Source: an uncultured Verrucomicrobiae bacterium
Lineage (GTDB): Bacteria; Verrucomicrobiota; Verrucomicrobiia; Chthoniobacterales; JAFAMB01
Direction: 5' to 3'
Assembly: GCA_963762565.1 (NCBI GenBank)
Contig: CAVXLD010000007.1
Span: 320,001-384,000, forward strand
DNA: 64,000 nucleotides
Within the stretch, counting starts at the first letter, position 1; each line of letters starts with the position of its first letter. The translations under genes were made by a program, and so were the position numbers. The notes beneath the pieces were generated by a model that saw nothing but the letters and a program-made list of their open reading frames with translations, made no database searches and was not told the DNA's origin. Below are positions 6,442 to 46,753 of the stretch, in pieces.

Positions 6442-7335
6442 ATGAACCGTCCAGCAGATCTAATCCAGCGGATTTCGAAATCCGACATCTATAAAGATTA
6501 CGAACGCGCCTTCAGCGACGCCACCGAACTTCCTATGGCCCTCCGGCCAACTGAGATCTGGAGGTTCGCTCTAGAAGGAAAACGCTACCGAAACCCTTTC
6601 TGCGCCATGCTGGCCAAAACGAGTCGAACCTGTGCCGCTTGCTTGGAAACCCAGAAAAGAATGCAAGATATGCCGGGCGAAGGACCGAAGACAGTCACTT
6701 GTTTTGCCGGCCTCTGCGACACGGCAGTACCGGTGCGAGCCGGCGACAAACTGATCGGGTACTTGCAGACTGGACAGGTAGCCCTCCGGAAACCGAACGA
6801 GGTGCAGTTCAATAAGATCACTCAGCAACTCGTCGACTGGGGCGTGACGGTCGATCTGACTCAGCTGCAAGATGCGTACTATCACTCGCGAACTTTAGCT
6901 CCTCAACAGTACACGGCCGTGGTTAAGCTGCTGGAGATCTTTGCTACCCATATCTCGACCTTAGCCAATGAGATCGTTGTGCAAGAGGATGAAGCCGAGT
7001 CACCAATGATCCGGCGGGCACGTGCTTACATCCATGCGAATCAGGCCGATCCTATCGATCTCGATCAGGTAGCCAAAGCCATGCATGTTAGTACCTTTTA
7101 TTTCTGCAAAATGTTCAAGAAGGCGACCGGCTTGACCTTTACGGACTACTTGAGCCGAGTGCGAGTGGAAAAGGCCAAAACACTGCTGCTCAATCCGCAT
7201 CTCAGAATCAGTGAAATCGCCTACGATATAGGTTTCCAATCATTAACCCACTTCAATCGTATGTTTCGCAAAATTGTGGGTGAGTCGCCTACGCATTATC
7301 GGGACACGAAGTCGGTACGGCAATTGTTGAACTAA
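6442..7335 (+). CDS. AraC-family regulator with PocR-type sensor domain
   Basis: NPFC...CAAC...CFAGLCDTAVPV...GYLQTGQV; C-terminal RISEIAYDIGFQSLTHFNRMFRKIVGESPTHYR. Confidence 0.9.
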   Translation: MNRPADLIQRISKSDIYKDYERAFSDATELPMALRPTEIWRFALEGKRYRNPFCAMLAKTSRTCAACLETQKRMQDMPGEGPKTVTCFAGLCDTAVPVRAGDKLIGYLQTGQVALRKPNEVQFNKITQQLVDWGVTVDLTQLQDAYYHSRTLAPQQYTAVVKLLEIFATHISTLANEIVVQEDEAESPMIRRARAYIHANQADPIDLDQVAKAMHVSTFYFCKMFKKATGLTFTDYLSRVRVEKAKTLLLNPHLRISEIAYDIGFQSLTHFNRMFRKIVGESPTHYRDTKSVRQLLN

Positions 7336-11285: not shown

Positions 11286-11798
11286 CTAATTCCCGAATCG
11301 CTCCACACCGGCGTTCCACCATTCCTGAACGCGAGCCACTATTTCTGGCACGATGGCTTCGACCCTCGGACTCAGCTCTCGGCCGCAGTCAAACGAACTA
11401 CCAGCCACGGAGATCAATAGAGCCTTGGGGCTAGCGCCGTACATGGCCTGCGCATAACTCAGCAGATTCATCGCTGTGAAATAGTGGGTGTATGCGTCCA
11501 CCGGCTTCGGATCTGGATGAATGGTTTCGCAGGTCCAACTCCCGGGTTGCCCTTCGTAGCACGCATCGATGAAGATAACCAAGTTAGCCTCGCTGATCGG
11601 TTCCGCGAGTTCGGGTGTCAGTTGGTGCACCGCCAACACCTTGGTCGAGTCGCCGGCGAGCTTAGCCAGTTGATCAACCACTTGCCAGCCGATACCGTCA
11701 TCTCCACGTAGCGGGTTACCATACCCAATGATCAGCACTCCGGAGGGCGGTTCTCGCTTAGCTAGAGTTTCCGGCTTGTCAGTTGCGTTTGATTTCAT
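11286..11798 (-). CDS. hoxW: Hydrogenase maturation endopeptidase
   Basis: [17 protein letters not shown]...HQLTPELAE...VIFIDA; directly downstream of hoxH. Confidence 0.9.
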
Positions 11799-13266
11799 CC
11801 AGTACTTCCTTCCCAGGTCCGAGGAGTTGGATATGAAGCGGCATTCGACCGATCGCATGCGTCGAACAGCTCAAACAAGGATCGAAACAGCGGATCACGG
11901 CTTCAACCCGGTTAAGCATCCCTTCCTGCAGATGCGTGCCTTTAACATAGTGTTGTGCGACTTGTTTTACGCCGCGGTTCATGGCCAGGTTATTATGCCC
12001 GGTAGCGATGATCAAATTCACCGATTTGATCAATCCATGTTCGTCGATGGTGTAATGATGAAACAGCGTACCGCGGGGCGCTTCGGCAACCCCGACCCCC
12101 TCGAATCGGTTAGGCTCGGCAAAGGCTCGAACGTGTTTATCTAAGATGTCGGGCTCGTGCAAAATCTGTTCAATTCGTTCGATGCCGTACAAGATCTCAA
12201 CCAGCCGGGCGTAGTGCTGATGGAACGAGCTTAAGATTACCCCTCGATCCTGCGCCCGGAATTCGGTCCAGGCCGCGTCCGCCTTTGGTGTGCCGCACCG
12301 ATCGATGATATTCAGGCGAGCCAGCGGTCCCACTCGATAGATCCCATCGGGATAACCCGCCGGTTTGAAATAAGGCGATTTCAGATACGAGAACGGCTCA
12401 ACCGCCTCTGCCAGGTAATCCTGATACCTGGTTGGATCTACTCCATCCAATACGATGTTACCCTCAGCATCCATCATCCGCAGCACCCCATCATAATGTT
12501 CCAGCGCCGCCGCCTGCCTCAGTTCCCGCCCGTTCCCGCCTCCCGCGGCCGCGGGGCTCGGTTCTCGCTCGTTATTTGGAGCGACCAGACCCATGAACAT
12601 GCTGGGAAAATTTCCGAAAATGCGGATCTCATCCTTGAACTGTTCCTGGATGCCTGTATACCAAGCCAAGGTCCGCTCAATCATCGTGACGGCGTCGGGA
12701 AGCATTACCAGGATTCGTTCCCTTTTTTCTTCGGAGAGCGGTTCGCTGACACCACCGGGCACTACCCAGGCCGGATGAATTCGTTTACCGCCCAGCATGG
12801 CAATGATCTCCTGACCAAACTTGCGGAGAGCGATCCCATCCTTGGCGAGTTGTGGATGGGTTTCGATGACCCCGAAAATGTTACGTTTGGCTGGATCGCT
12901 ATCCATGCCAAACAACAAGTCGGGCGATGACAAATGGAAAAAACTCAGGGCATGTGATTGCACGAGTTGCGCCAGGTTCATTATGCGGCGGAGTTTGGCC
13001 GCCGTGGGCGGTATCTCCACCGCCAGGAGCGCGTCGCAGGCCTTGGCCGATGCCATGAGATGACTCACCGGACAGATGCCGCAGATCCTAGCCGTGATTG
13101 CGGGCATCTCGGCGAATGGACGCCCTTCGCAAAATTTTTCGAATCCACGAAATTGGGTGACGTGAAAACGAGCGTCCTGGACTTCACCCGCGTCGTCCAG
13201 CTGGATGGTGATTTTCGAGTGCCCCTCGATGCGAGTAACCGGATCGATAACGATTTCTTTGGCCAT
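11779..13266 (-). CDS. hoxH: Bidirectional [NiFe] hydrogenase large subunit (group 3d)
   Basis: TRIEGH, L1 [18 protein letters not shown]2 DPCLSCSTH with C-terminal extension. Confidence 0.97.
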
Positions 13267-13268
13267 GG

Positions 13269-13802
13269 CTAAGCTCCAAATCGGGTGAGACCAGTCAGAT
13301 CAGGTTTCGGTCCGGCTAATAATTGAGTTAGTACAAAATAGATGGTGTCGGCCGAGGGCGGGCACCCCGGGACAAATACGTCCACCGTTACATACTCATG
13401 CACCGGACGAGCCTTGGGTAGCAATGGGGGAACCACCTGTTTCGGCACTTGCCGATTCAGCTGCGCGTTTTCGATGTACGAACGATTCTCCAGATCCCGA
13501 ACCGAAAACCGGTTCCGCATACCGGGTACATTCGAAGTCACCGCGCAGTCTCCCAGTGAGACCAGGATTTTGCTTCGTTGCCGAACCTTCCGGATTTTCT
13601 CCAGATCCTCTTCACTGCTCACGGCCCCTTCGACGAGCACAATATCCACATTCTCCGGATACTCTTTGGTATCGACTAGTGGGCTGTAAACCAGATCAAC
13701 TAACCCGGCCAGCTCAAGCCAGCGTTCATCCATGTCCAGCGCCGACATGTGGCAGCCGGAACAACCATCCAGCCAAATTGTGGCTAGTTTCACTTTGCTC
13801 AT
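13269..13802 (-). CDS. hoxY: Bidirectional hydrogenase small subunit
   Basis: [20 protein letters not shown]. Confidence 0.95.
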
Positions 13803-14503
13803 CTTGGTTGTTGGCGCATGAGCGCCAGGTAGGGCAGAAACTCTCGCTGTTTCGCCATCTCAGCCACGGATTTGCCTTTTTCAAAAAGCGCACCAGTAGG
13901 ACAGACTTGGACACACTTCCCGCAACTTGTGCAGGTCTCAGAACTGCCCCATGGCTGATTCAAATCGGTGATCACCCGCGAATTGGTGCCGCGTCCCATT
14001 ACATCCCAAGTGTGAGCCCCTTCAATCTCATCGCAAACCCGAACACACCGGGTGCAAAGGATGCAGCGATTGTGATCGACCACGAAGCGATCATGCGACG
14101 CATCTACCGTCGCTTGGGGATACAGATAGGAGAATCGCACGTGCGTCATTCCGTGCTGCTGAGCCAGGCTCTGTAATTCGCAATGGCCGTTCGAAACGCA
14201 TACTGCGCAAATATGGTTTCGTTCCGCAAACAGCAGCTCCAGAATCATTAGCCGATATTTGCCCAACCGCTCGGTATCAGTCTTCACCTCCATGCCTTCT
14301 GAAACTTTGGTAACGCATGCCGGTAACAGTTTCGCGGAGCCCGCTACTTCCACCAGGCATAATCGGCAGGCGCCGGCTTCGCTTAGCCCTTCTAACCGAC
14401 AGAGTGTGGGAATCTTTATCCCGGCATCAGTCGCTGCCTCGAGGAGCGTTTGTTCATCCTCAGCACTCACATGCTGTTCGTTGATGGTTAACGTTTTAGC
14501 CAT
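13799..14503 (-). CDS. hoxU: Diaphorase Fe-S subunit
   Basis: IPTLC...CRLC, HICAVC...[24 protein letters not shown]. Confidence 0.95.
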
Positions 14504-14517
14504 AGCGTGGAAGTGAT

Positions 14518-14727
14518 CAGTAAGCGGTAAGCAGTAAGCGGTAAGCAGTAAGCGGTAAGCGGTAAGCGGTAATAGTGCTTGCGAACACAGGGGCTTGGAC
14601 GCAGGAACGTGTGCTTACTTTGTATAAATAACTTCATTAGAAGTTGGCAGGTTCTTACTGTTGTGATGTTTATTTTTCGAGTAGCTATTGCTTACCGCTT
14701 ACCGCTTACCGCTTACTGGTTTACTGG
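14518..14727. repeat. Inverted pair of heptamer tandem arrays (CRGTAAG / CTTACYG)
   Basis: 8 units at 14518-14573 and about 5 complementary units at 14691-14727, between hoxF and hoxU. Confidence 0.9.
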
Positions 14728-16319
14728 TTAGTGTCCTGGAGTAATTCCAGATACTCGTTTCTAAAATAACGGAGGGTACTTAGCACAGGATTTGGGGCGG
14801 TCTGTCCAAGGCCGCAAAGACTGGTGTGTTTAACCAAATCACAGAGCTCTTCTAATTGCTCCAAGTCTTTCAGAGTGCCCCGGCGTTCGACAATCTTGTT
14901 CAAGAGTTCGTACATTTGCACGGTGCCGGCCCGGCAGGGGATACATTTACCGCACGACTCCTCCATGCAGAACTGCATGTAGAAACGAGCCACGTCCACC
15001 ATGTTCGTATGCTCGTCCATGACGACCATGCCGCCTGATCCCATAATCGAGCCTAAGCTCACTAAGGATTCGTAATCGACCGGCGTATCAAAGTGTTCGC
15101 TGGGAATACAACCTCCGGAGGGTCCCCCGGTTTGCACTGCCTTGATTCTAGCTCCATCCGGAGCACCGCCTCCCAGATCTTGAACGATCTCACGAATCGT
15201 TATCCCGATTGGCACTTCAATTAGCCCGGTATTTCGTATCTTTCCGGTCAACGAAAAGACTTTCGTTCCTTTGCTTTTTTCCGTGCCCAATGCGGCGAAC
15301 CATTCTGGCCCTTTGTCCAGAATCGGGACGATGTTCGCATAAGTTTCGACGTTATTAATTAACGTAGGATAACCCCACAGCCCGCTTTGAGCCGGGAAAG
15401 GTGGACGAGGGTGCGGCTGTCCCCGTTTGCCTTCGATCGACGCCATCAGGGCCGTCTCTTCGCCGCAGACAAAAGCGCCGGCGCCGATGCGAAGTTCAAT
15501 ATTGAAATTGAACGGAGATTCAAAGATACCGCTCCCCAGCAAGCCATGATGTTTGGCTTGACGGATCGCGGTTTGCAGGCGGCTGACTGCCAGCGGGTAT
15601 TCAGCACGGACATAGAGGTATGCCTGGTCCGCCCCAACCGCGAAACCGGCGATCGCCATTCCTTCCAGTACCCGATGCGGATCGCTCTCCAGCACGCTGC
15701 GATCCATAAAAGCACCCGGGTCACCCTCGTCGCCGTTGCAGATAACGAATTTGTGCAGGCCCGGAGATTTTGCAACAGTACCCCACTTAAGACCGGTCGG
15801 GTAACCAGCGCCGCCCCGGCCGCGCAAACCGCTTTTGATGACTGCGTCGATCACCTCGGTTGGCTGCATTTCCGACAAAACATGATGCAACGTGCTATAC
15901 CCTCCGGCTTCGATGTAATCCTCGATTCGTTCCGGATCGATGCGTCCGCTGTTGGCGCATACGACCAAGGTTTGACGTCTGAAGAATGGATGGCTCGGGT
16001 CTCCCAGCTCGGCCTCAGCTACGCCGCCGGCGAGCGCCTCCACAATGGACGGAGCGTTCTCCGGAGTGACATATTGGTAAAGCAGGCCGCCCGGTTCTAC
16101 GGTCACCATTGGCCCTTGACCACACGAACCCATACAACCAACCCGCCGGACCTCTACTCGGCTGACCATGCCTTTGTCGGAGACAGCCTGCTGAAGCGTT
16201 TCTTTGATTTCGGCTGCTCGGGAGGACATGCAACCTGCAGCCATACAACAACGAATGCAGATTTCCTTTCGGGCCTGCTTTTCCTTCTCGGCAACCTCTT
16301 GCAATTGTTCAAGGACCAC
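14721..16319 (-). CDS. hoxF: Diaphorase FMN/NAD-binding subunit (NuoF-like)
   Basis: [52 protein letters not shown]...SLCGLG. Confidence 0.96.
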
Positions 16320-16809
16320 AACCGATGACTCCTTTTAGCTTTTCCACTGCATTGTCCGGTGTCCGATGACCCGCTACCACGCCGTCATAGACCACAGCCG
16401 GTCCGATGGCACAGGCACCGATACATCGAGCCGTCAAAAGCGATAGCTGTTTATCCGGCGTTGTTTCGCCCGACTTAATGCCGCCGAACTTTTCGATAGC
16501 TGCTAGTATCTTGTCAGCGCCTTTGACATAGCAAGCCGTACCCAGGCAGACCACGCAGGCGTGGGCGCCTTGCGGTTTGAGGCTAAAAAAGTTGTAAAAA
16601 GTAGCGACACCGTAGACGCGACTCGGTGGGACACGCAGTGCCTTCGCGACAAAAGTCAGCGCTTCGTGATCCAAATAACCGAACGATTCCTGGACCGTAT
16701 GCAACGTTTCAATCAGCGCGTGGCCTGCATAACCGAGGCGGCGCATCTTCGCATCGACGATTTTCCACCGTTTATCTTGTGATGGGAGAGACTGCTTTAT
16801 CGGTTTCAT
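16309..16809 (-). CDS. hoxE: [2Fe-2S] subunit (NuoE-like)
   Basis: GVATFY...CLGTAC...RCIGAC; first gene of the hox operon. Confidence 0.95.
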
Positions 16810-17339
16810 GGTTTCTGGGTGGGCGATCCTTACGTTTTCTCAGGCATTCCGTAACAACACGTTGCCTGTAAAGTTGGCCCTCGTGCTAACCCGTTGCCCG
16901 GTCATCTTTATGCTTCTTGGGGGAAGTTACCAATGCGCCGCAGATCGCTCTTGGCTTCTAATGGCTAACTATAACCGAGTGTTGTCAAGAGTTTAACCGT
17001 TTCCACAAAATCGACCCGATACTAGTGCACCAAGTCAGTGACTGGGGTAGTGGCGCTGCTGCGTTGCTCCTCAGTTACGTATCGATTCAGATATGCTCCT
17101 TCGTCGCGTCCGGCAGCTGTCGGACCGACGGCCCATTTTGATCGCAACGCCGCTACCCCAGTCACTGACTTGGTGCGTTAAGCCGAGTCCTTTTCTTGTT
17201 TCCGGTTCATTTGTCAGCTTGGTCTGCCACCCTCGCCGAAAGAAAGGTGGGCAGTACCAGAGCTGGTCAGCAAAAAGCAAAACAGGGCGAGACAACGCGC
17301 TCGTTTTTTGAAATGATCAGGCTACAGAAAGCAGCCCCC

Positions 17340-18542
17340 ATGATTACTCCCCACGTGATCGTGATTGGCGCCGGATCCACAGGATCGGCAACCGCCCACG
17401 ATTTAGCGTTGCGCGGCTTAAGTGTCACCGTCATCGAACGCGGCGAAGTCGCTTTCGGCACGACCGGGCGCAACCATTGTCTGTTGCATTCCGGCGGCCG
17501 CTACTGTGTGACCGACCAGGAATCCGCCATAGAGTGCATCGACGAGAATCTCATTCTGCGGAAGATCATGCCCGATCTTCTCGAATTGAATGACGGTCTT
17601 TTTGTGGCGGTCAGCGAAAGTGATCTTGCGTTCAAGCAAAAATTCCTCGAAGGCTGTGCCGCTTGCCATATCCCAGCCCGCGAGATTACCGTTGCTCACG
17701 CTCTGGCCATTGAGCCATTTCTTAACCCGGCGATTTTGACGGCAGTCCAGATACCGGACGGCGTTTTTGAACCATTCCGGTTTTGTCTGGCCTTTCTGGC
17801 GACCGCCCTCCAAAACGGCGCCACGGTTCGCACTTTTACGGAGGTCACTGATTTTACCTTTTCCAACCGGAACCTATCCGGCGTGAAAATCCACGATCAC
17901 CGGACGGGTAACGATGAAACCCTGGGCGCCGACCTGATTATCAACGCTTCCGGCCCATGGGCTGGAGAAATGGCCGCTAAAGCGGGAGTTCAGGTTCCAG
18001 AGGTGCCGACTGCGGGGGTGATGGTGGCACTGGATTGTCGCTTGAACAACATGGTTATTAATCGCCTCAACAAACCGTCTGACGGCGATATTGTTGTGCC
18101 GCAACGCGCTACTTCGGTGATCGGCACCACCTCCTGGGCGGTCGAAGATCCCGACTTAATTACCATACCGGCCGAGCACGTGGAGCGGATGATTTCCCAA
18201 GGGGAGCAACTATTGCCCGTCGTGAAAAAAGTGCCCATGCGGGCGAAGATGGCAGTTGCTCGGCCGCTCATTGCCACGGCTGGGACGGATGCTCGAGAGT
18301 TAAGCCGCACCTTCGAGTGTTTCGACCATGCTCGTGACGGCGTGAATGGCTTTGTCACGATAACCGGCGGCAAAACCACTACCGCACGCGCGATGGCCGA
18401 GCGCGTCGCCGACATCGTTTGTCAGAAGCTCGGTATCAAGGCGGAGTGTCGGACCCGAGATGTTCCACTTAGTTCTTACCGCTTGTTCTTTGCTAAACAG
18501 AATCTTTTTAAAAAAACGTCCCCGCTGCTGGCCGCAGGCTAA
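17340..18542 (+). CDS. GlpA-like FAD-dependent oxidoreductase (glycerol-3-phosphate dehydrogenase family)
   Basis: VIGAGSTG..A.DLALRG, GTTGRNHCLLHSGGRY.V.D.ESA.EC..EN, SDGDIVVP, ITGGKTTT.RAMAE. No C-terminal [2Fe-2S] domain. Start 17313 or 17340. Confidence 0.88.
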   Translation: MITPHVIVIGAGSTGSATAHDLALRGLSVTVIERGEVAFGTTGRNHCLLHSGGRYCVTDQESAIECIDENLILRKIMPDLLELNDGLFVAVSESDLAFKQKFLEGCAACHIPAREITVAHALAIEPFLNPAILTAVQIPDGVFEPFRFCLAFLATALQNGATVRTFTEVTDFTFSNRNLSGVKIHDHRTGNDETLGADLIINASGPWAGEMAAKAGVQVPEVPTAGVMVALDCRLNNMVINRLNKPSDGDIVVPQRATSVIGTTSWAVEDPDLITIPAEHVERMISQGEQLLPVVKKVPMRAKMAVARPLIATAGTDARELSRTFECFDHARDGVNGFVTITGGKTTTARAMAERVADIVCQKLGIKAECRTRDVPLSSYRLFFAKQNLFKKTSPLLAAG

Positions 18543-18564
18543 CCCGTTTAGGGAGGTATTTCGA

Positions 18565-19335
18565 ATGAACATGCTTAAGGTTCCAATAGAAATCTTCCGC
18601 TATAAGCTAGGGCAGCCGGCTCGTTACGATACTTTCACGATCGAAATCGCAGACACTGCCCATGTGATTGATGCGATTGATATGGTTTGGGCGAAGCATG
18701 ACCCAACTCTAACCTTTCGCCGAGCTTGTCACCATTCGTCGTGTGGTTCTTGTGCGTTGCGGATTAACGGGGTCGAGAAGTTACCCTGCATCGCTCGCAT
18801 AACCGACGTTTGGAATGGTAAAATGCCCGTACGCCTCGAGCCGCTTCGTAATTTCCCGGTTGTCAGCGATCTGGTAGTAGAAGTTGGCTACTTTTTTGAA
18901 CGGATGGCCGCTGCCGGAATGACAATTACCTGCGAAGCCGAAGGCTTCTTGCCATTGACTGTCGACAGCTTTGCTGTGGCTGACGTTCTTCCCAAAACCG
19001 TCGAACTACCGGAGAACCTTTCTCGGTTCAATCGGTTCGAGCAATGCATTGAGTGTGGGATTTGCATGAGCGCTTGCCCAACCATGGCGACCGACGACAA
19101 ATTTCTTGGGCCGGCGGGTCTAGCCGCCATTTATCAGGCTCGACAAAAAACGAATGATCCGGCAACGATTAAACATTTGTTAGGATTAGCCGACGGAGAG
19201 CATGGCGTTTGGCGGTGTCACAGTGCGTTCGAATGCACCGAGGCATGTCCACAAGCCGTTGATCCTGCCTCTAAGATAATGGCTTTGCGCCGCGAGCTCG
19301 CTCTCCGCCGGCTAAGAACGCTGTTCAAAAGATAG
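18565..19335 (+). CDS. sdhB: SdhB/FrdB-type Fe-S subunit
   Basis: CHHSSCGSC...C ([2Fe-2S]), CIECGICMSACP, CHSAFECTEACP; GGAGG RBS at 18552. Confidence 0.9.
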   Translation: MNMLKVPIEIFRYKLGQPARYDTFTIEIADTAHVIDAIDMVWAKHDPTLTFRRACHHSSCGSCALRINGVEKLPCIARITDVWNGKMPVRLEPLRNFPVVSDLVVEVGYFFERMAAAGMTITCEAEGFLPLTVDSFAVADVLPKTVELPENLSRFNRFEQCIECGICMSACPTMATDDKFLGPAGLAAIYQARQKTNDPATIKHLLGLADGEHGVWRCHSAFECTEACPQAVDPASKIMALRRELALRRLRTLFKR

Positions 19336-41180: not shown

Positions 41181-41663
41181 CTAGAAACCGGAATCCTCTC
41201 CTTTCGGTTTCAGACTGATGAGGTAAGCGACTAGATCGTTCAACTGGTCGTCGGTAAGCATATCCTTGAAACCCGGCATGTGCAGCGGCGGCGCCGGCCC
41301 ACTCGGATCCAGCTTCGGCTCATCAGGCACACCAATTTTAATCTTCTCGATCAGTTCGGGTTTGGTATAGCCGTCGGCCACCTTGTTAAGCGGGGGAATT
41401 TCCTGTCCCGATTGCGCATTAAAATTATGAACGCCGCCTTTGCCACCCGGACCGTGGCAGGTCTCGCAGCTGAATTCTTGGTAAATCTTTAATCCGCGTT
41501 GCAGCTCAGGACTCAGCGGCGCCGCCGAGGCCGAGGCTTCCGCTCCGGGCGGGACATTTTCTTTTTTCCGGCGTTGAGAATCGAGGTAGCCGGTTGCGAT
41601 AACAGACCCGACGAGAATCAAACCCATAATTCCAACCAGATATTTTTGCGCGTTGATGCTCAT
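41181..41663 (-). CDS. Membrane-anchored monoheme cytochrome c
   Basis: N-terminal TM helix, CETCH, distal HMPGF...LTDDQLNDLVAYL. Confidence 0.9.
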   Translation of the reverse strand: MSINAQKYLVGIMGLILVGSVIATGYLDSQRRKKENVPPGAEASASAAPLSPELQRGLKIYQEFSCETCHGPGGKGGVHNFNAQSGQEIPPLNKVADGYTKPELIEKIKIGVPDEPKLDPSGPAPPLHMPGFKDMLTDDQLNDLVAYLISLKPKGEDSGF

Positions 41664-41677
41664 GCTTAAGTTCCAGT

Positions 41678-42712
41678 TCAACCGACAATCGCCTCCCAAA
41701 GCATGAACACGATCGTCATCAAAAAGCACGATGTCCCGACGATCACCCACAAATGCCTTCGAGGCGCGATTTTTTCCAGCGCGGCATCAATGAACGGCCA
41801 CAGAAACAGGCCGGCTACGAAGATCACACTTCCCCAGATTCCGACGGAGAGTGAGGTTAGCTTCAGCCAGCGATAGGTAGGAAAGAAGTACCACTCCGGA
41901 CGAATATGCCCAGGGGTATTGCCCGGTGTTGCCTGCGCACCGACGGTAGGCGGAAAGAACATAACGAAATTGACCAACGCGATCAGGATGACAAGACCGA
42001 CAATCATTTCCCGTAGCATATGGTCGGGAAAGAACGGATAGGTTTCTTGGCGTGGATCGCTTGGCAGTGGGGCCACTCCGTGCAAACGCACGAGGAGGAC
42101 GTGAGCGACAATCAGCAGCGTCATCATCGTGGGCAGCACACCGATATGGAAATCGTAAAACCTGCTGAGGGTGTTCGGATTTACTTCGGACCCGCCGCGC
42201 AGGAGATAAAGCAGTGGCTCGCCGATCACTGGCACGGCCGCAATCATGTTCGTGCCGATCGTGGTAGCCCAATAGGAGAGCTGGTCATAAACGAGCGAGT
42301 ACCCGGTAAATGCGAACGTCAGGGTGATCATAAAGAGCGCCACACCGAACATCCAGTTCAGCTCCCGCGGATTGCGGTAAGCGCGCGTGAAGAAGACGCG
42401 GATCATGTGCAGCAGCACGGTCACAATCATCAACTGAGAGGCGCCCTGATGGATACCGCGAATAAACCAACCCATGCGCACCTTGAAGGTGATGTTGCTG
42501 ACGCTAGCGTAAGCGTGGCTTGGAGATGGTACGTAGTAAAAAGTTAGTAAAATTCCCGTAACCGCGAGGATGCAGAAGAGTAGGGCCGGCGTTCCGCCCA
42601 GGCAAAAAACCCAGTTTTTCATATGAACGGGCAGCGGTTCGCGCAACGCCTTTCGGACGAGCTCCTGATCCACCGGCACTCGTTCCCCAATCCACCGGAG
42701 CGCACGCTTCAT
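41678..42712 (-). CDS. Cytochrome b (b6-like part fused to subunit IV-like part) of a Rieske/cytochrome b complex
   Basis: FCLGG, RGIH...LHMIRVF, GYSL.YDQ..YWA, FH...AH, HIRPEWYF. Confidence 0.93.
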   Translation of the reverse strand: MKRALRWIGERVPVDQELVRKALREPLPVHMKNWVFCLGGTPALLFCILAVTGILLTFYYVPSPSHAYASVSNITFKVRMGWFIRGIHQGASQLMIVTVLLHMIRVFFTRAYRNPRELNWMFGVALFMITLTFAFTGYSLVYDQLSYWATTIGTNMIAAVPVIGEPLLYLLRGGSEVNPNTLSRFYDFHIGVLPTMMTLLIVAHVLLVRLHGVAPLPSDPRQETYPFFPDHMLREMIVGLVILIALVNFVMFFPPTVGAQATPGNTPGHIRPEWYFFPTYRWLKLTSLSVGIWGSVIFVAGLFLWPFIDAALEKIAPRRHLWVIVGTSCFLMTIVFMLWEAIVG

Positions 42713-43182
42713 GCCTGTTGCTCCTTGGGCGAATTCATGAGCACAAAAACCTGGCCGTCCCGCAATGTAACCTGAAGTTTTACCAATGGGCGCGGCGGCG
42801 GACCGGAAACGACATTTCCGTTCAAATCGTAAACCCCTTGATGGCACGGACAAATGAATCTCTTGTCCTCCGGATGCCATTGGACGGTGCAGCCCAGGTG
42901 AGTGCAAACAGCCGAAAAGGCATGAACTTCGTTCTCCGCTTTCTCTAAAATCACGGGACCCGCCGGCAACTGGATGAGCCGAACGCCGTCAGCTGGAATA
43001 TCCTCTGGTTTTCCTGCGGGCACCTCAACGAGTTTGACGGCCGGGATGACCGGATAAAGGTATTCCAGGAACCGATAAGCCAAGCTCCCCAAGCCCAGCA
43101 CCGTTCCTGCGCCGAGAACGATATTGGCTATGAAATCGCGGCGCGAGCCCAAAGCCACTTCGGATGGAGCCGGTTCTTCCAC
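42709..43182 (-). CDS. Rieske [2Fe-2S] protein
   Basis: Tat motif SRRDFI, TM helix, CTHLGC...CPCHQG.Y, GPPPRPL. Confidence 0.95.
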   Translation of the reverse strand: MEEPAPSEVALGSRRDFIANIVLGAGTVLGLGSLAYRFLEYLYPVIPAVKLVEVPAGKPEDIPADGVRLIQLPAGPVILEKAENEVHAFSAVCTHLGCTVQWHPEDKRFICPCHQGVYDLNGNVVSGPPPRPLVKLQVTLRDGQVFVLMNSPKEQQA

Positions 43183-43196
43183 GAAGCAGGCGTTCG

Positions 43197-43649
43197 TTAC
43201 TTGTACTTGTCGACGACCGCCTTGATCTTCGCTTCCGCAGCAGCCTTTTCCGCAGCCGAGATCGTCGCAAGTTTTGCATCAAGCATCGCCTTCTTGCGGA
43301 CGCTGGAGTCGTACACGAGGAAATCGTAAATCTTAGCGCCTGAGCCACCGTCAATTCCTGAGGCGGGCTTACTCATCATGCGGTGAATGTAGCGCGACCA
43401 CTCGTCTGGCAGTACAAAATCAGAGTTAATCGGGCGGCTCAACTTATGACACTGTGAGCACTTCTCGGTAAACACCGTGTAGTCTTGTTGGATGGCACCC
43501 GGATATTTCGAGACATTGATCGTCGCCGGGCCTTTGTCGAACTGTGCGATCCGAGCGTCAACTGCCTGAGCGAGCGCGAAGCCTGCCCCGATCACGGTGA
43601 CTGCAGACCCTAGCAGGAGGATGGTGGAGAGCTTGATTTTCATTGGCAT
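43197..43649 (-). CDS. Periplasmic monoheme cytochrome c
   Basis: Signal peptide (ALA-QA), CSQCH, W..YI.RMM. Confidence 0.85.
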   Translation of the reverse strand: MPMKIKLSTILLLGSAVTVIGAGFALAQAVDARIAQFDKGPATINVSKYPGAIQQDYTVFTEKCSQCHKLSRPINSDFVLPDEWSRYIHRMMSKPASGIDGGSGAKIYDFLVYDSSVRKKAMLDAKLATISAAEKAAAEAKIKAVVDKYK

Positions 43650-43670
43650 AATATTGGTATTTGCGGTCGT

Positions 43671-45152
43671 CTAAAATCCGTACGAAAGCTGGAAGACATA
43701 TTCGTTGGACGGAGCGACGATAGGGCCGCGGCTATGCACCCATTCGTAGTCGCCTTCCAATAGTAAGGTGTTAGTTAGATAGTAGACGTATCCAACCGTT
43801 TCACGTTGAGTTCTCGTCCCCAGACCGTCATCCACCCAATCAAAGCGGGCGACCAATTGAAGGTTGTTCAAGAACGGGAGATTCATGGTCTGATTTAAAG
43901 CTGCCAGCTTGAAAGCAGGCTGAATCCACCAACCTCGCGGAGCAAGCGTACCCATGTTGCTGGTCTGCCACCAGGTATTGATATACTCACCCTTAATTTC
44001 GAAGTAGGGACTGATGTGCACAGCGGCGTCGGCAACGATAGCTGACCAGTTTTTGTTCCCTTGGTTGTTCCAAGGACCCGTGTCACCCGAAATCCCGAGT
44101 TCCAAATCATAATTAGGTTTCAGCGGGAAGAACCACCCCAGCCGGCCACCGCCACCGACCGACGCGTGCTCATTCGCTGTCGTGCCATTGGATTGAATGC
44201 CGACATTACCAAAATCAAGATTCGGCAACACGTTGCCATTGCTGTCAATGGTTGTCGCTCTTCCGGTCCCGTCTACTGATCCCGGTCCGTTCGTTGCGTA
44301 CACGGAATAGGTTACCATCTGTCCGTTTTGCCCGATCGGAACGGAGCCCCGCAACTGGACGCCAATCCCAGTTTCCGGCAGGACGGCGCGTGGCAATGGA
44401 TCATCCGGTATCAAATTGAGCCAACCCGCATTTCGCTCAGTATAGGTACCCAAGGGCAGCAACATCTCGCCAGCGACAACCGTTACGTAATCATTAAGCA
44501 GATAGTCCAATTGGCCGAAACTGAGACTGATCGATGTCTGAGTGCCGATATTACCTGTTTGCCCGTTCGCCAGCGTTACCGCGCCGTTCTGCAACGTAAC
44601 GTCGAACCCGGCTTCGAAGAGGACGTTGTCTCCAGCCCGATACAAGAAAATCGGCGCGAAATCGGCCAGCGTAAAGGCGCTATGCTGCCCGGTGGTCTTG
44701 CCGAATTGAACCTCTGCGTCTCCGGCTAGAGTGAAGTTATGCGTCGCGAGGGACTCGGGAGAAATCGGAGCAACGGGCTGAATTTGGGTCACAGATACGG
44801 CCTTCTGTTCCGCCGCAGTCGCAGTATTTTGGGCTTCGCCTACCTGTTGCTGGAGTTTCTTTTGCATCTGGGCCGCCGCTTGTGCTTTGCGCTGGGCATC
44901 GGTAGCAGCTTTTTGCGTGTCCCCGACCTGCTGCTGTAATTGCTGGATTTTCTGCTGGTCCTGCTCGTGGATCTTCTGGTCTTCCTCGTGCGTCTGCTCC
45001 AGTTTCTGCATTTTTTCGCTGAGTTGCCGGACTTGTTCCTTCAAGGCATTGAAGTCGTCATCGCTGATCTCTGCCATCACCCGCGGCGGCGAGGACATAC
45101 CCATTACACAGCCAGCAACCAACAGTTCTAAGATTCTGGAACGAATTTTCAT
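43671..45152 (-). CDS. Outer-membrane beta-barrel (porin-like) with N-terminal coiled coil
   Basis: Signal peptide, Gln-rich coiled coil with an internal repeat (LQQQVG..Q..AT.A..KA x2), amphipathic aromatic strands, C-terminal YVFQLSYGF. Confidence 0.85.
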   Translation of the reverse strand: MKIRSRILELLVAGCVMGMSSPPRVMAEISDDDFNALKEQVRQLSEKMQKLEQTHEEDQKIHEQDQQKIQQLQQQVGDTQKAATDAQRKAQAAAQMQKKLQQQVGEAQNTATAAEQKAVSVTQIQPVAPISPESLATHNFTLAGDAEVQFGKTTGQHSAFTLADFAPIFLYRAGDNVLFEAGFDVTLQNGAVTLANGQTGNIGTQTSISLSFGQLDYLLNDYVTVVAGEMLLPLGTYTERNAGWLNLIPDDPLPRAVLPETGIGVQLRGSVPIGQNGQMVTYSVYATNGPGSVDGTGRATTIDSNGNVLPNLDFGNVGIQSNGTTANEHASVGGGGRLGWFFPLKPNYDLELGISGDTGPWNNQGNKNWSAIVADAAVHISPYFEIKGEYINTWWQTSNMGTLAPRGWWIQPAFKLAALNQTMNLPFLNNLQLVARFDWVDDGLGTRTQRETVGYVYYLTNTLLLEGDYEWVHSRGPIVAPSNEYVFQLSYGF

Positions 45153-45173
45153 TAGCGTTGGTTGGTTACTCTT

Positions 45174-45506
45174 CTAGTTTCCGGCTTCATCCTGGAGATA
45201 CTTCATGATCTCCCTGGCTTGCGCCGCGGGCAGGTTAGCCCGCACCCGCATGTGGATCATGATGGTTTTCCACTGGGCTGCCGTGAACTCCTTAGGGTAC
45301 CGTTCTTGGTGGCACCGGCTGCAGTTGATGGCGTACAGCGTGGCGCCGGAGAGGCCATTGGTCACCGCCGGCTTCTCCGGTGTAGTTTGCTGCGGTCCTG
45401 CTGAAACGAGAGGGCTGTTGACCACCCAAGTTGCTCCAGCAAAAATCGCGAGGCCGATAGCCAACAGCCGAGGCTTGAATGAACCAACGTGCTTGACGGT
45501 TTTCAT
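45174..45506 (-). CDS. Small exported monoheme cytochrome c
   Basis: Signal/TM segment, GATLYAINCSRCH...W.TIMIHMRVRANL. Confidence 0.88.
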   Translation of the reverse strand: MKTVKHVGSFKPRLLAIGLAIFAGATWVVNSPLVSAGPQQTTPEKPAVTNGLSGATLYAINCSRCHQERYPKEFTAAQWKTIMIHMRVRANLPAAQAREIMKYLQDEAGN

Positions 45507-45844: not shown

Positions 45845-46753
45845 TTAGCTGATCTCAGGCAATCTAGACCGGTATTCTGTCGGAGAGAACCCGACCAGCT
45901 TACGAAAGATCCGGTTAAAGTGGGTAATCGTTTGGAAACCTGCCTCGTAAGCTATCTCGCTAACTCGCAGCCTTTTCTCCGACAACAAGACTTTCGCCTT
46001 CTCAATTCGGATACGGCTCAAGTAGTCAATGAAGGTTAGACCAGTTCCCTGTTTAAATACCCTGCAAAAATGAAACTCACTGACATTGAGGGCATGAGCA
46101 ATCTGTTCCAGCCTAATCGGTTCGGAGTGATGACTCGCCACATAATCTTTGGCGCGGGTAACCAGTGGCGAATCGACATTGGCGTGCTGGAGCGAAATCT
46201 GGTTGGCCACCAATGCCAGGTGTTCGGAGAAAATCTCCAAAAGTTGTACTGCTCCGTTATATAGACTGGATGAAACTACCCGTGAGCCCAGATACGCAGT
46301 TTTCAGGCGAGCCAAGTTCATGTTCGTACCTAGACTAGCTAAACGCGTAGCGATCTTCTTGAAGCGGCTTGGATTCGGAGCTCGCAGGAAGACTTGACCC
46401 GTCTGCAGAAACGCGATGACGTGGTCCATCAGCTTTACCGGCACGCTGGTAACCGTGAGTCCAGCGAAACATTTCGCCGCTCGTGTTTCCGTTGTCTTCG
46501 CGCCCAACGTCTGCTGTGTTTCTAAGCAGCTCGCGCAAGCCTGGTTACTCAGTGCAAGGATAGCGCAAAAAGGATTTTTATATTTGTTCCGAGGGAGGTG
46601 GATTTCCGACTCGTGTCCGACGGATGCGAGTCCCAAAGGTAACTTTGTTGTCTTTCCGAAGGCGACCTGATAATTTTGGTAAATTCGCGAACGGCTGAGC
46701 ACGTCCACGACGTCAGCACCGTTATTCATGATATGATCTATACCTCGGGCCAC
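45845..46753 (-). CDS. AraC-family regulator with PocR-type sensor domain
   Basis: NPFC...CASC...CFAGL...VPV...LQTGQV; AraC HTH; paralog of 6442. Confidence 0.9.
   Translation of the reverse strand: MARGIDHIMNNGADVVDVLSRSRIYQNYQVAFGKTTKLPLGLASVGHESEIHLPRNKYKNPFCAILALSNQACASCLETQQTLGAKTTETRAAKCFAGLTVTSVPVKLMDHVIAFLQTGQVFLRAPNPSRFKKIATRLASLGTNMNLARLKTAYLGSRVVSSSLYNGAVQLLEIFSEHLALVANQISLQHANVDSPLVTRAKDYVASHHSEPIRLEQIAHALNVSEFHFCRVFKQGTGLTFIDYLSRIRIEKAKVLLSEKRLRVSEIAYEAGFQTITHFNRIFRKLVGFSPTEYRSRLPEIS

Follow-up and report, generated by a model that had tools for sequence, protein, structure and literature searches.

Closest described systems

To our knowledge, two kinds of electron conduit through the outer membrane have been described, multiheme wires and the fused protein Cyc2. 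Parts of two sources describe porin-multiheme conduits (MtrAB/PioAB/MtoAB, Pcc, PCC3, PCC4 and Uet) that run to a quinone-active protein of the inner membrane (PMC5566968, PMC10734462), and the MtrB barrel is given as 26 strands (10.1101/228056). In the passages of two papers that treat Cyc2, it has a 16-strand OprP/OprO-like barrel with a heme at the periplasmic opening, and its substrate enters the pore (10.1101/228056; PMC13741234); the motif AxPxFAR[Q/K][T/Y] lies 5 residues before its CxxCH (10.1101/228056). The Geobacter cluster extHIJKLMNOPQS places an OprP-like porin, ExtI, with the Rieske protein ExtO, the cytochrome b ExtP and c-type cytochromes, and is given a role in reducing selenite and tellurite in the sections concerned (PMC5877670). 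In Kuenenia, the clusters Kuste4569-4574 and Kustd1480-1485 are described, in part of one paper, as a Rieske/cytochrome b pair with an NAD(P) oxidoreductase and a hexa- or octaheme cytochrome (PMC12954380). Here we consider a six-gene operon in a 64,000-nucleotide stretch (the window; contig CAVXLD010000007.1, positions 320,001 to 384,000) of an uncultured Verrucomicrobiae bacterium. Its core, a porin and the small cytochrome cytA, may form a two-piece electron gate in the outer membrane that would be connected to the quinone pool, in this operon through a Rieske/cytochrome b (bc) complex.

The operon and its conserved pair

An earlier note on this DNA had described one tightly packed operon, and all six open reading frames (ORFs) are indeed where it placed them, on the minus strand, with intergenic gaps from cytA to cytC of 21, 21 and 14 bases, a 4-base overlap and 14 bases as calculated from the coordinates:

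45174-45506, minus strand: cytA, exported monoheme cytochrome c, CSRCH at 62-66
43671-45152, minus strand: porin, 493 amino acids, C-terminal F, with signal peptide, stalk and OprP-like barrel
43197-43649, minus strand: cytB, exported monoheme cytochrome c, CSQCH at 64-68
42709-43182, minus strand: Rieske protein, SRRDFI motif of the twin-arginine translocation (Tat) type, CTHLGC/CPCH, PF00355 (E 5e-13)
41678-42712, minus strand: cytochrome b, PEWY at 272, PF00033 (E 7.5e-49) and PF00032
41181-41663, minus strand: cytC, CETCH, N-terminal hydrophobic helix, PF00034 (E 1.7e-11)

The heme genes of the operon are all monoheme, and none of the six genes matches rhodanese. The identical six genes recur in identical order in five of seven close loci of relatives, and on that recurrence the arrangement exceeds chance.

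Conservation across the family was followed in the best 80 of 316 genome matches and the best 80 of 280 metagenome matches (the distant subfamily), with 20 further regions from a phylum search of 401 genomes, of which 17 came from its 28 weaker match places. These loci, partly non-independent (shared genomes or near duplicates occur among them), were sorted into close, distant and outgroup by porin score, independently of the neighbouring genes. Overall, the porin has a cytA homologue no more than 400 bp away in 81/82 close loci and 75/85 distant ones, and where at least 500 bp of flank is present on both sides the figures are 79/79 and 47/48 (126/127 in total). Low-scoring outgroup porins have no cytA homologue within 400 bp in any of 17 loci. 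In the single full-flank miss (L131) cytA continues in the porin reading frame, perhaps through a sequencing frameshift. The cytochrome is upstream of the porin in 78 close loci and downstream in all 75 distant ones; therefore the linkage outlasts rearrangement. Conservation of the neighbourhood, which the earlier note had named as a check, thus holds for porin and cytA and fails for the six-gene form, which is found in 6/80 close loci. The six-gene set was accordingly rejected as a conserved unit, and gene linkage points instead to porin plus cytA as the unit kept family-wide.

Fusions and unusual loci also occur. Of 269 porin homologues, four have a class I cytochrome at the N-terminus, and two have a cytA-like domain that lacks CxxCH. 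Fusions of the porin to one class I cytochrome domain (three domains in L204) are seen in P0182, P0215, P0261 and P0263, and in L142, L178 and L204:4636-6912; in the class I fusions, cytA is still a separate downstream gene where the locus is known. In P0199 and P0246 the cytA-like domain precedes the barrel, with both heme cysteines missing, the His kept and a His near the Met position, and possibly constitutes a non-covalent heme site. The porin is also plasmid-borne, with a cytochrome gene downstream of it, in Alteromonas (L203:8848-10556) and Glaciecola (L205:5848-7568); the L203 cytochrome is a cytA-diheme protein, and the locus sits between copper-resistance genes (copCD/RND) and a NiFe hydrogenase cluster. 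The core pair is also present in Alteromonas strains in culture. In L118, L127 and L170, the genes after cytA code for a membrane cytochrome that has an FMN-binding domain and for an NqrF-like FAD/2Fe-2S protein.

The porin and its predicted complex with cytA

The barrel section of the porin gene (43674-44765) was modelled with AlphaFold2 from an alignment of 143 homologues as 16 strands with a long L3, at a predicted local distance difference test score (pLDDT) of 93. Its best solved structural match is OprP (Z 27.9, root-mean-square deviation 3.2, 301 aligned), the Foldseek matches listed are trimeric porins, and the family profile matches OprP at E 6.5e-8 (Atlas clusters 0.97). No porin-cytochrome complex is among the fold-search matches listed. 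The query porin has no Pfam or NCBIfam porin match, including none to PF07396, whose cut-off several distant family members pass; it does not match ExtI (NF040900) at E<=0.1, and two of 27 distant members do so weakly (best E 2.9e-5). Its ORF contains no CxxCH. The barrel is a 16-strand OprP-like porin, neither Cyc2 nor ExtI. Ahead of it runs a periplasmic coiled-coil stalk of ~95 residues (about 29-122), called from weak coiled-coil profile matches and composition and lying outside the folded model.

The barrel was then modelled together with the cytA heme domain, using paired alignments and including heme. The complex scored 0.89 against 0.01 for the best of three controls, the runs agree in at least 88% of contacts, and partner pLDDT is at least 89; the score mark was reached by 116/157 solved and 2/215 mismatched pairs, counts that apply only roughly here. 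Multimer prediction had been proposed earlier as a way to see whether a cytochrome plugs the barrel, and in the model cytA does so. The 47 porin contact residues are periplasmic strand ends, turns and L3 residues 110-116, with none in an extracellular loop, and their mean conservation is 0.66 vs 0.52 elsewhere. On the cytA side the contacts are the CxxCH segment and the H-M-R-V-R-A helix; its Met and Trp are not listed, as expected of a heme ligand and a core residue. Mutual information between the proteins (119 paired sequences, effective 69) placed 0/30 top pairs in the interface, gapped end columns dominating. On the strength of the model, cytA very probably plugs the periplasmic mouth of the porin.

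The cytochromes and the bc complex

CytA is of the TorC-C/SorB/DHC-like class: it matches PF09626 (E 7.5e-5), and at E<=0.001 its homologues match TorC (C-terminal domain) in 84 and SorB in 72 of 119 cases. Its conserved residues are W79 and H85-M86-R87-x-R89, of which H85, R87 and R89 are kept family-wide; some distant members show, by eye, lipoprotein-like signals. CytB gives no Pfam match, nothing by phmmer against the PDB at E<=10 and nothing by Foldseek at E<=0.001. Its model (pLDDT 91) has a fold with a C-terminal helical tail, nearest to PscC (C-terminal domain of cytochrome cz) and SorB, with top Foldseek matches to 3a9f and 2blf_B at probabilities of 0.97-0.99 but E 0.2-0.6. It matches cytA weakly by profile and lies downstream of the porin in 59/82 close loci, and is probably a periplasmic electron relay. 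A W-x6-M pattern after CxxCH is kept in both proteins and invariant in cytB, and because this Met is invariant both hemes are presumably His/Met-ligated. CytC is a class I monoheme cytochrome with an N-terminal membrane anchor (hydrophobic segment 8-26), homologous to the C-terminal part of a hexaheme protein in variant operons, and is probably the electron exit from the bc complex.

The remaining two genes have the marks of a b6f-like complex, with the two cluster boxes of a Tat-type, membrane-anchored Rieske protein, a four-His PEWY cytochrome b and a c-type exit cytochrome. The cytochrome b is of the b6 plus subunit IV type in a single chain, with seven hydrophobic helices, His88/102/189/204, PEWY and a CLGG motif that we take to be the heme ci site. 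Its best NCBIfam match is ExtP at 225 bits, below the cut-off of 290. In the Rieske box CPCHQGVY, a Gly occupies the position of the Ser of high-potential Rieske proteins, a Ser/Tyr rule that is set out in part of one paper (PMC12954380). Among 301 genomes of the order, this type of cytochrome b (E<=1e-100) occurs in six, each time ~1 kb from the porin, which itself is present in 15. The earlier note's description of the bc complex as dedicated is borne out in all six copies. By gene placement, then, the bc complex is dedicated to the porin, and the porin is not tied to the bc complex.

Variable partner modules

Neighbouring modules were called by directed labelling of ORFs in the 80 close loci. 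The commonest, in 36/80, is an NAD(P)-linked FAD/Fe-S protein with Rieske, cytochrome b and a multiheme cytochrome downstream of the porin; cytochrome b is seen in 28 of these, and the remaining eight contigs stop early. The Rieske-cytochrome b-monoheme form of the window accounts for only 6/80, and 29/80 have a diheme cytochrome without an adjacent bc complex (diheme only 15, diheme and cox 11, diheme on short contigs 3), so that the all-monoheme path through a bc complex proposed earlier is not supported as worded. The others are ACIII-like (alternative complex III; 2), other (4) or incomplete at a contig end (3). Across the family, the porin-cytA pair joins unrelated quinone-linked modules (bc, NAD(P)-linked bc, ACIII and NrfC/NrfD-like). 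In a FastTree phylogeny of the porins, rooted at the midpoint, the five main module labels change 22 times over 71 labelled tips, a plain count with no shuffle or clade test behind it, and deletion from one ancestral operon accounts for part of these changes. In distant loci of at least 5 kb (n=42, rough BLAST tags), a quinone-linked module is present in 12 and a cupredoxin-like gene alone in four.

Many Limisphaerales-type loci among L034-L092 (for example L056:7855-9099 and L038:17859-18347) have the module in front of a cupredoxin-like gene and a cox operon, and the flanking genes resemble ribBA and ribH, presumably of riboflavin synthesis. L068 and L077 each have, adjoining the porin-linked operon, another of the Rieske/cytochrome b kind that includes a nine-heme cytochrome.

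Genomic context and regulation

The host genome (6.1 Mb, 93.7% complete) has its nearest named homologues in Chthoniobacterales and other Verrucomicrobiota, and it carries one copy each of porin, cytA and cytB. The earlier statement that neither a multiheme protein nor a terminal oxidase is present is true of the 64,000-nucleotide window. Elsewhere, coxI-type oxidase genes occur at three loci, there are two clusters for alternative complex III, and a second bc complex is encoded; the only ORFs of the genome with at least five CxxCH motifs are two 5-heme ActA-type proteins on other contigs. A gene of the futalosine menaquinone pathway is present. RuBisCO, the one marker of carbon fixation sought, was not found in this 93.7% complete genome. 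A system II-type cytochrome c assembly gene (a PF01578 homologue) is on a separate contig, and in most close relatives a PF01578 homologue directly follows the operon.

A regulator gene stands 338 bp upstream of the operon and in the same direction:

45845-46753, minus strand: PocR-sensor/AraC regulator, PF10114 and PF12833, true start possibly ATG 46729

It is also upstream in six of seven close relatives' loci, the seventh contig stopping there, and its product probably regulates the six genes. Promoter and terminator scans were at chance level (4 vs 3.4 and 7 vs 7.7). A second PocR/AraC regulator lies at 6442-7335. From 1204 to 56288 the window resembles a low-oxygen island, with eight Pfam-confirmed Usp genes, a NiFe hydrogenase cluster with diaphorase-type subunits (11779-16809), malic enzyme, a ribosome hibernation factor, H+-PPase, PPDK and PFOR. 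At 17196-19335, an SdhB-like Fe-S protein comes after an FAD oxidoreductase (PF01266), and neither a flavoprotein nor a membrane subunit was seen adjacent to it. By its gene content the window appears fermentative or low-O2 and rich in stress genes.

Proposed mechanism and alternatives

We suggest that cytA is docked in the periplasmic mouth of the porin beneath loop L3, and that a small soluble species enters an acid-lined pore from outside and meets the single heme. A single heme in that position does not reach across the membrane, and therefore the substrate would have to be small and enter the pore; the best candidates would be metals, as ions or small chelates, in the form of Fe(III), Mn(III) or Cu(II). 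Electron exchange between the heme and a solute from outside is likely. The OprP/OprO phosphate porins are marked by a basic, anion-selective lumen with an arginine ladder; here, at inward lumen positions that at least 80% of the 68 close sequences conserve, 15 residues are acidic, including D16, E18, D35, E51 and D55 on strands 1-3 (barrel numbering), vs seven basic. Under O2 shortage, electrons would flow outward from menaquinol through Rieske/cytochrome b (a proton-motive Q cycle) to the anchored cytC, and then, in presumed order, through cytB and cytA to the acceptor in the pore; the stalk may be assumed to have a role as well. Given a gate, outward flow is somewhat favoured because of the menaquinone gene, the failure to find RuBisCO, the Rieske protein without Ser and the low-O2 and fermentative genes of the window. 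The earlier note had also counted humics among the external donors or acceptors. No extracellular-loop contact is predicted, and therefore solid minerals and bulk humics are unlikely substrates; direct contact with either was rejected, there being no outer cytochrome. Taken whole, a two-piece gate for small soluble metal species that exports menaquinol electrons under low O2 is our leading proposal, held at somewhat short of an even chance.

Several observations weigh against this proposal. The complex is a model, and its score was calibrated without ligand and on other alignments. Inward positions were assigned by strand alternation, an approximate procedure by which the phase of strand 4 disagrees with the predicted contacts, and the distant-clade lumen (51 sequences) is barely acidic (9 acidic vs 7 basic). 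The Ser/Tyr rule is unreliable, a Kuenenia Rieske protein without the Tyr having had a higher potential according to part of one paper (PMC12954380). No bc complex is adjacent in 38/80 close loci, and in 11/80 the module is just upstream of aa3-oxidase genes, an arrangement compatible with electron uptake; the three aa3-type oxidases of the genome could likewise drain the bc complex. The system is absent from 5/5 genomes of the same genus (78-95% complete). Of the 42 distant loci, 18 have none of the tagged neighbours and 11 have copper or heavy-metal genes, three of these being quinone-linked as well.

Some of these points suit the same gate run in reverse, as a Cyc2-like oxidase of Fe(II), Mn(II) or Cu(I), with electrons passing from cytA to cytB to cytC. 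From there they would either run downhill into an aa3 oxidase or go uphill by way of the bc complex, in the GltD-type variant as far as NAD(P). The architecture resembles that of Cyc2, an Fe(II) oxidase, with its operon cyc2-cyc1-cup-cox, a His/Met-type heme is suggested by the invariant Met, and diheme, cupredoxin-like and cox genes follow in 11/80 close loci and an anammox-type NAD(P)-linked bc complex in 36/80. We nevertheless regard reversal as unlikely: the incomplete genome yielded no RuBisCO, the window looks fermentative or low-O2, and cox genes also come after the bc variant in L040, L045 and L069 (with ribH, a cupredoxin-like gene and cyoE), so that cox adjacency may be one lineage's location. 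The copper genes of distant loci, in turn, could reflect metal homeostasis, in which the plugged porin would reduce or oxidise entering copper (or iron) for uptake or detoxification and the respiratory module would merely supply or remove electrons. The 11/42 distant loci concerned hold CopA-type ATPase, CusA, multicopper oxidase/CopB or HMBD genes, the Alteromonas plasmid pair has its copCD/RND and hydrogenase neighbours, and distant porins keep an L3 His (48/51) and strand 3 Glu residues. That His is missing from the close clade, the query porin included, and no copper family is among the recurrent labelled neighbours of close loci. Metal islands gather mobile cargo, and a dedicated proton-motive bc complex would seem to exceed the needs of micronutrient uptake; metal homeostasis is thus, in our judgement, improbable, although copper handling is still a serious rival.

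An ordinary solute porin, co-transcribed with a cytochrome chain that serves a periplasmic enzyme while cytA does not act at the pore, would account for the nearest solved barrel relatives, which are solute porins. TorC-C and SorB folds normally serve molybdo-enzymes. Within a Rieske/cytochrome b cluster, Geobacter ExtI is read as a possible anion channel in part of one paper (PMC5877670). Yet the operon contains no catalytic periplasmic enzyme and none turns up repeatedly at its side, and the near-obligate porin-cytA linkage with its clean outgroup, the fusions and the complex model all argue against an ordinary porin, which we consider very unlikely.

Significance and comparison with known systems

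If the gate is real, a 16-strand porin stoppered by a small, separately encoded cytochrome would add a third type of conduit, abundant soil and peat heterotrophs would gain a route to redox-cycle Fe, Mn or Cu at low O2, and screens by Cyc2 motif or multiheme count would overlook such pairs. The porin family was found in 316 confirmed genome stretches and 280 metagenome stretches with narrow search patterns. Slightly more tentatively than for the window itself, we propose that porin and cytA are a widespread, unnamed family of single-heme two-piece gates, with an origin separate from Cyc2, which soil and peat Verrucomicrobiota and many other heterotrophs would have joined to available quinone-linked modules to respire with or oxidise dissolved metals under low O2. 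No description of the pair or of the gene set was found in the open-licence PMC and bioRxiv literature; unnamed porin-cytochrome clusters in Verrucomicrobia, entered in supplements of one paper as far as its main text indicates, could bear on novelty (PMC6344600).

The gene set most often joined to the porin in relatives (36/80) is that of the Kuenenia complexes: FAD/Fe-S oxidoreductase, Rieske, cytochrome b and hexaheme. The bc complex of the window differs in having neither oxidoreductase nor multiheme cytochrome and is only ~35% identical to that type, and the passages of PMC12954380 on the Kuenenia complexes mention no porin. The Geobacter ext cluster shares the grouping of porin, Rieske and cytochrome b, with ExtP the closest model for the latter, but the window lacks the rhodanese (ExtH) and the 4- to 12-heme cytochromes, and the ExtP score falls below its cut-off. 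With the porin-multiheme conduits, the pair has in common separate genes for porin and cytochrome, and both would be outer-membrane conduits with a connection to a quinone-active protein of the inner membrane; those are multiheme wires in larger barrels, whereas here a single heme, too short to bridge the membrane, is placed at the inner mouth, and the periplasmic multiheme cytochrome found beside the porin in Mtr, Pio and Pcc is missing from the window operon.

The closest likeness is to Cyc2, Cyt572 and Cyc2PV-1, in the 16-strand OprP/OprO-like barrel, the single c-type heme at the periplasmic opening and the downstream small cytochromes and bc or oxidase modules. Unlike in Cyc2, the heme is on a separate TorC-C/SorB-type protein with an invariant Met, and an N-terminal coiled-coil stalk replaces the heme domain. 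The Cyc2 heme motif occurs in none of 26,367 genome ORFs and none of the ORFs of the fetched loci, and no Cyc2 model is among the NCBIfam matches, no dedicated Cyc2 hidden Markov model comparison having been made. Descent from a split Cyc2 was rejected on the missing motif and the different cytochrome class, barrel homology lying outside that comparison, and the earlier label 'split Cyc2' survives only as a statement of how the system might work. Clusters of porin with Rieske/cytochrome b (Geobacter ext) and the one-heme 16-strand design (Cyc2) are already in print, and the system of the window belongs to neither; it is best classed as Cyc2-like in architecture without being Cyc2, a variant of the porin-cytochrome conduits.

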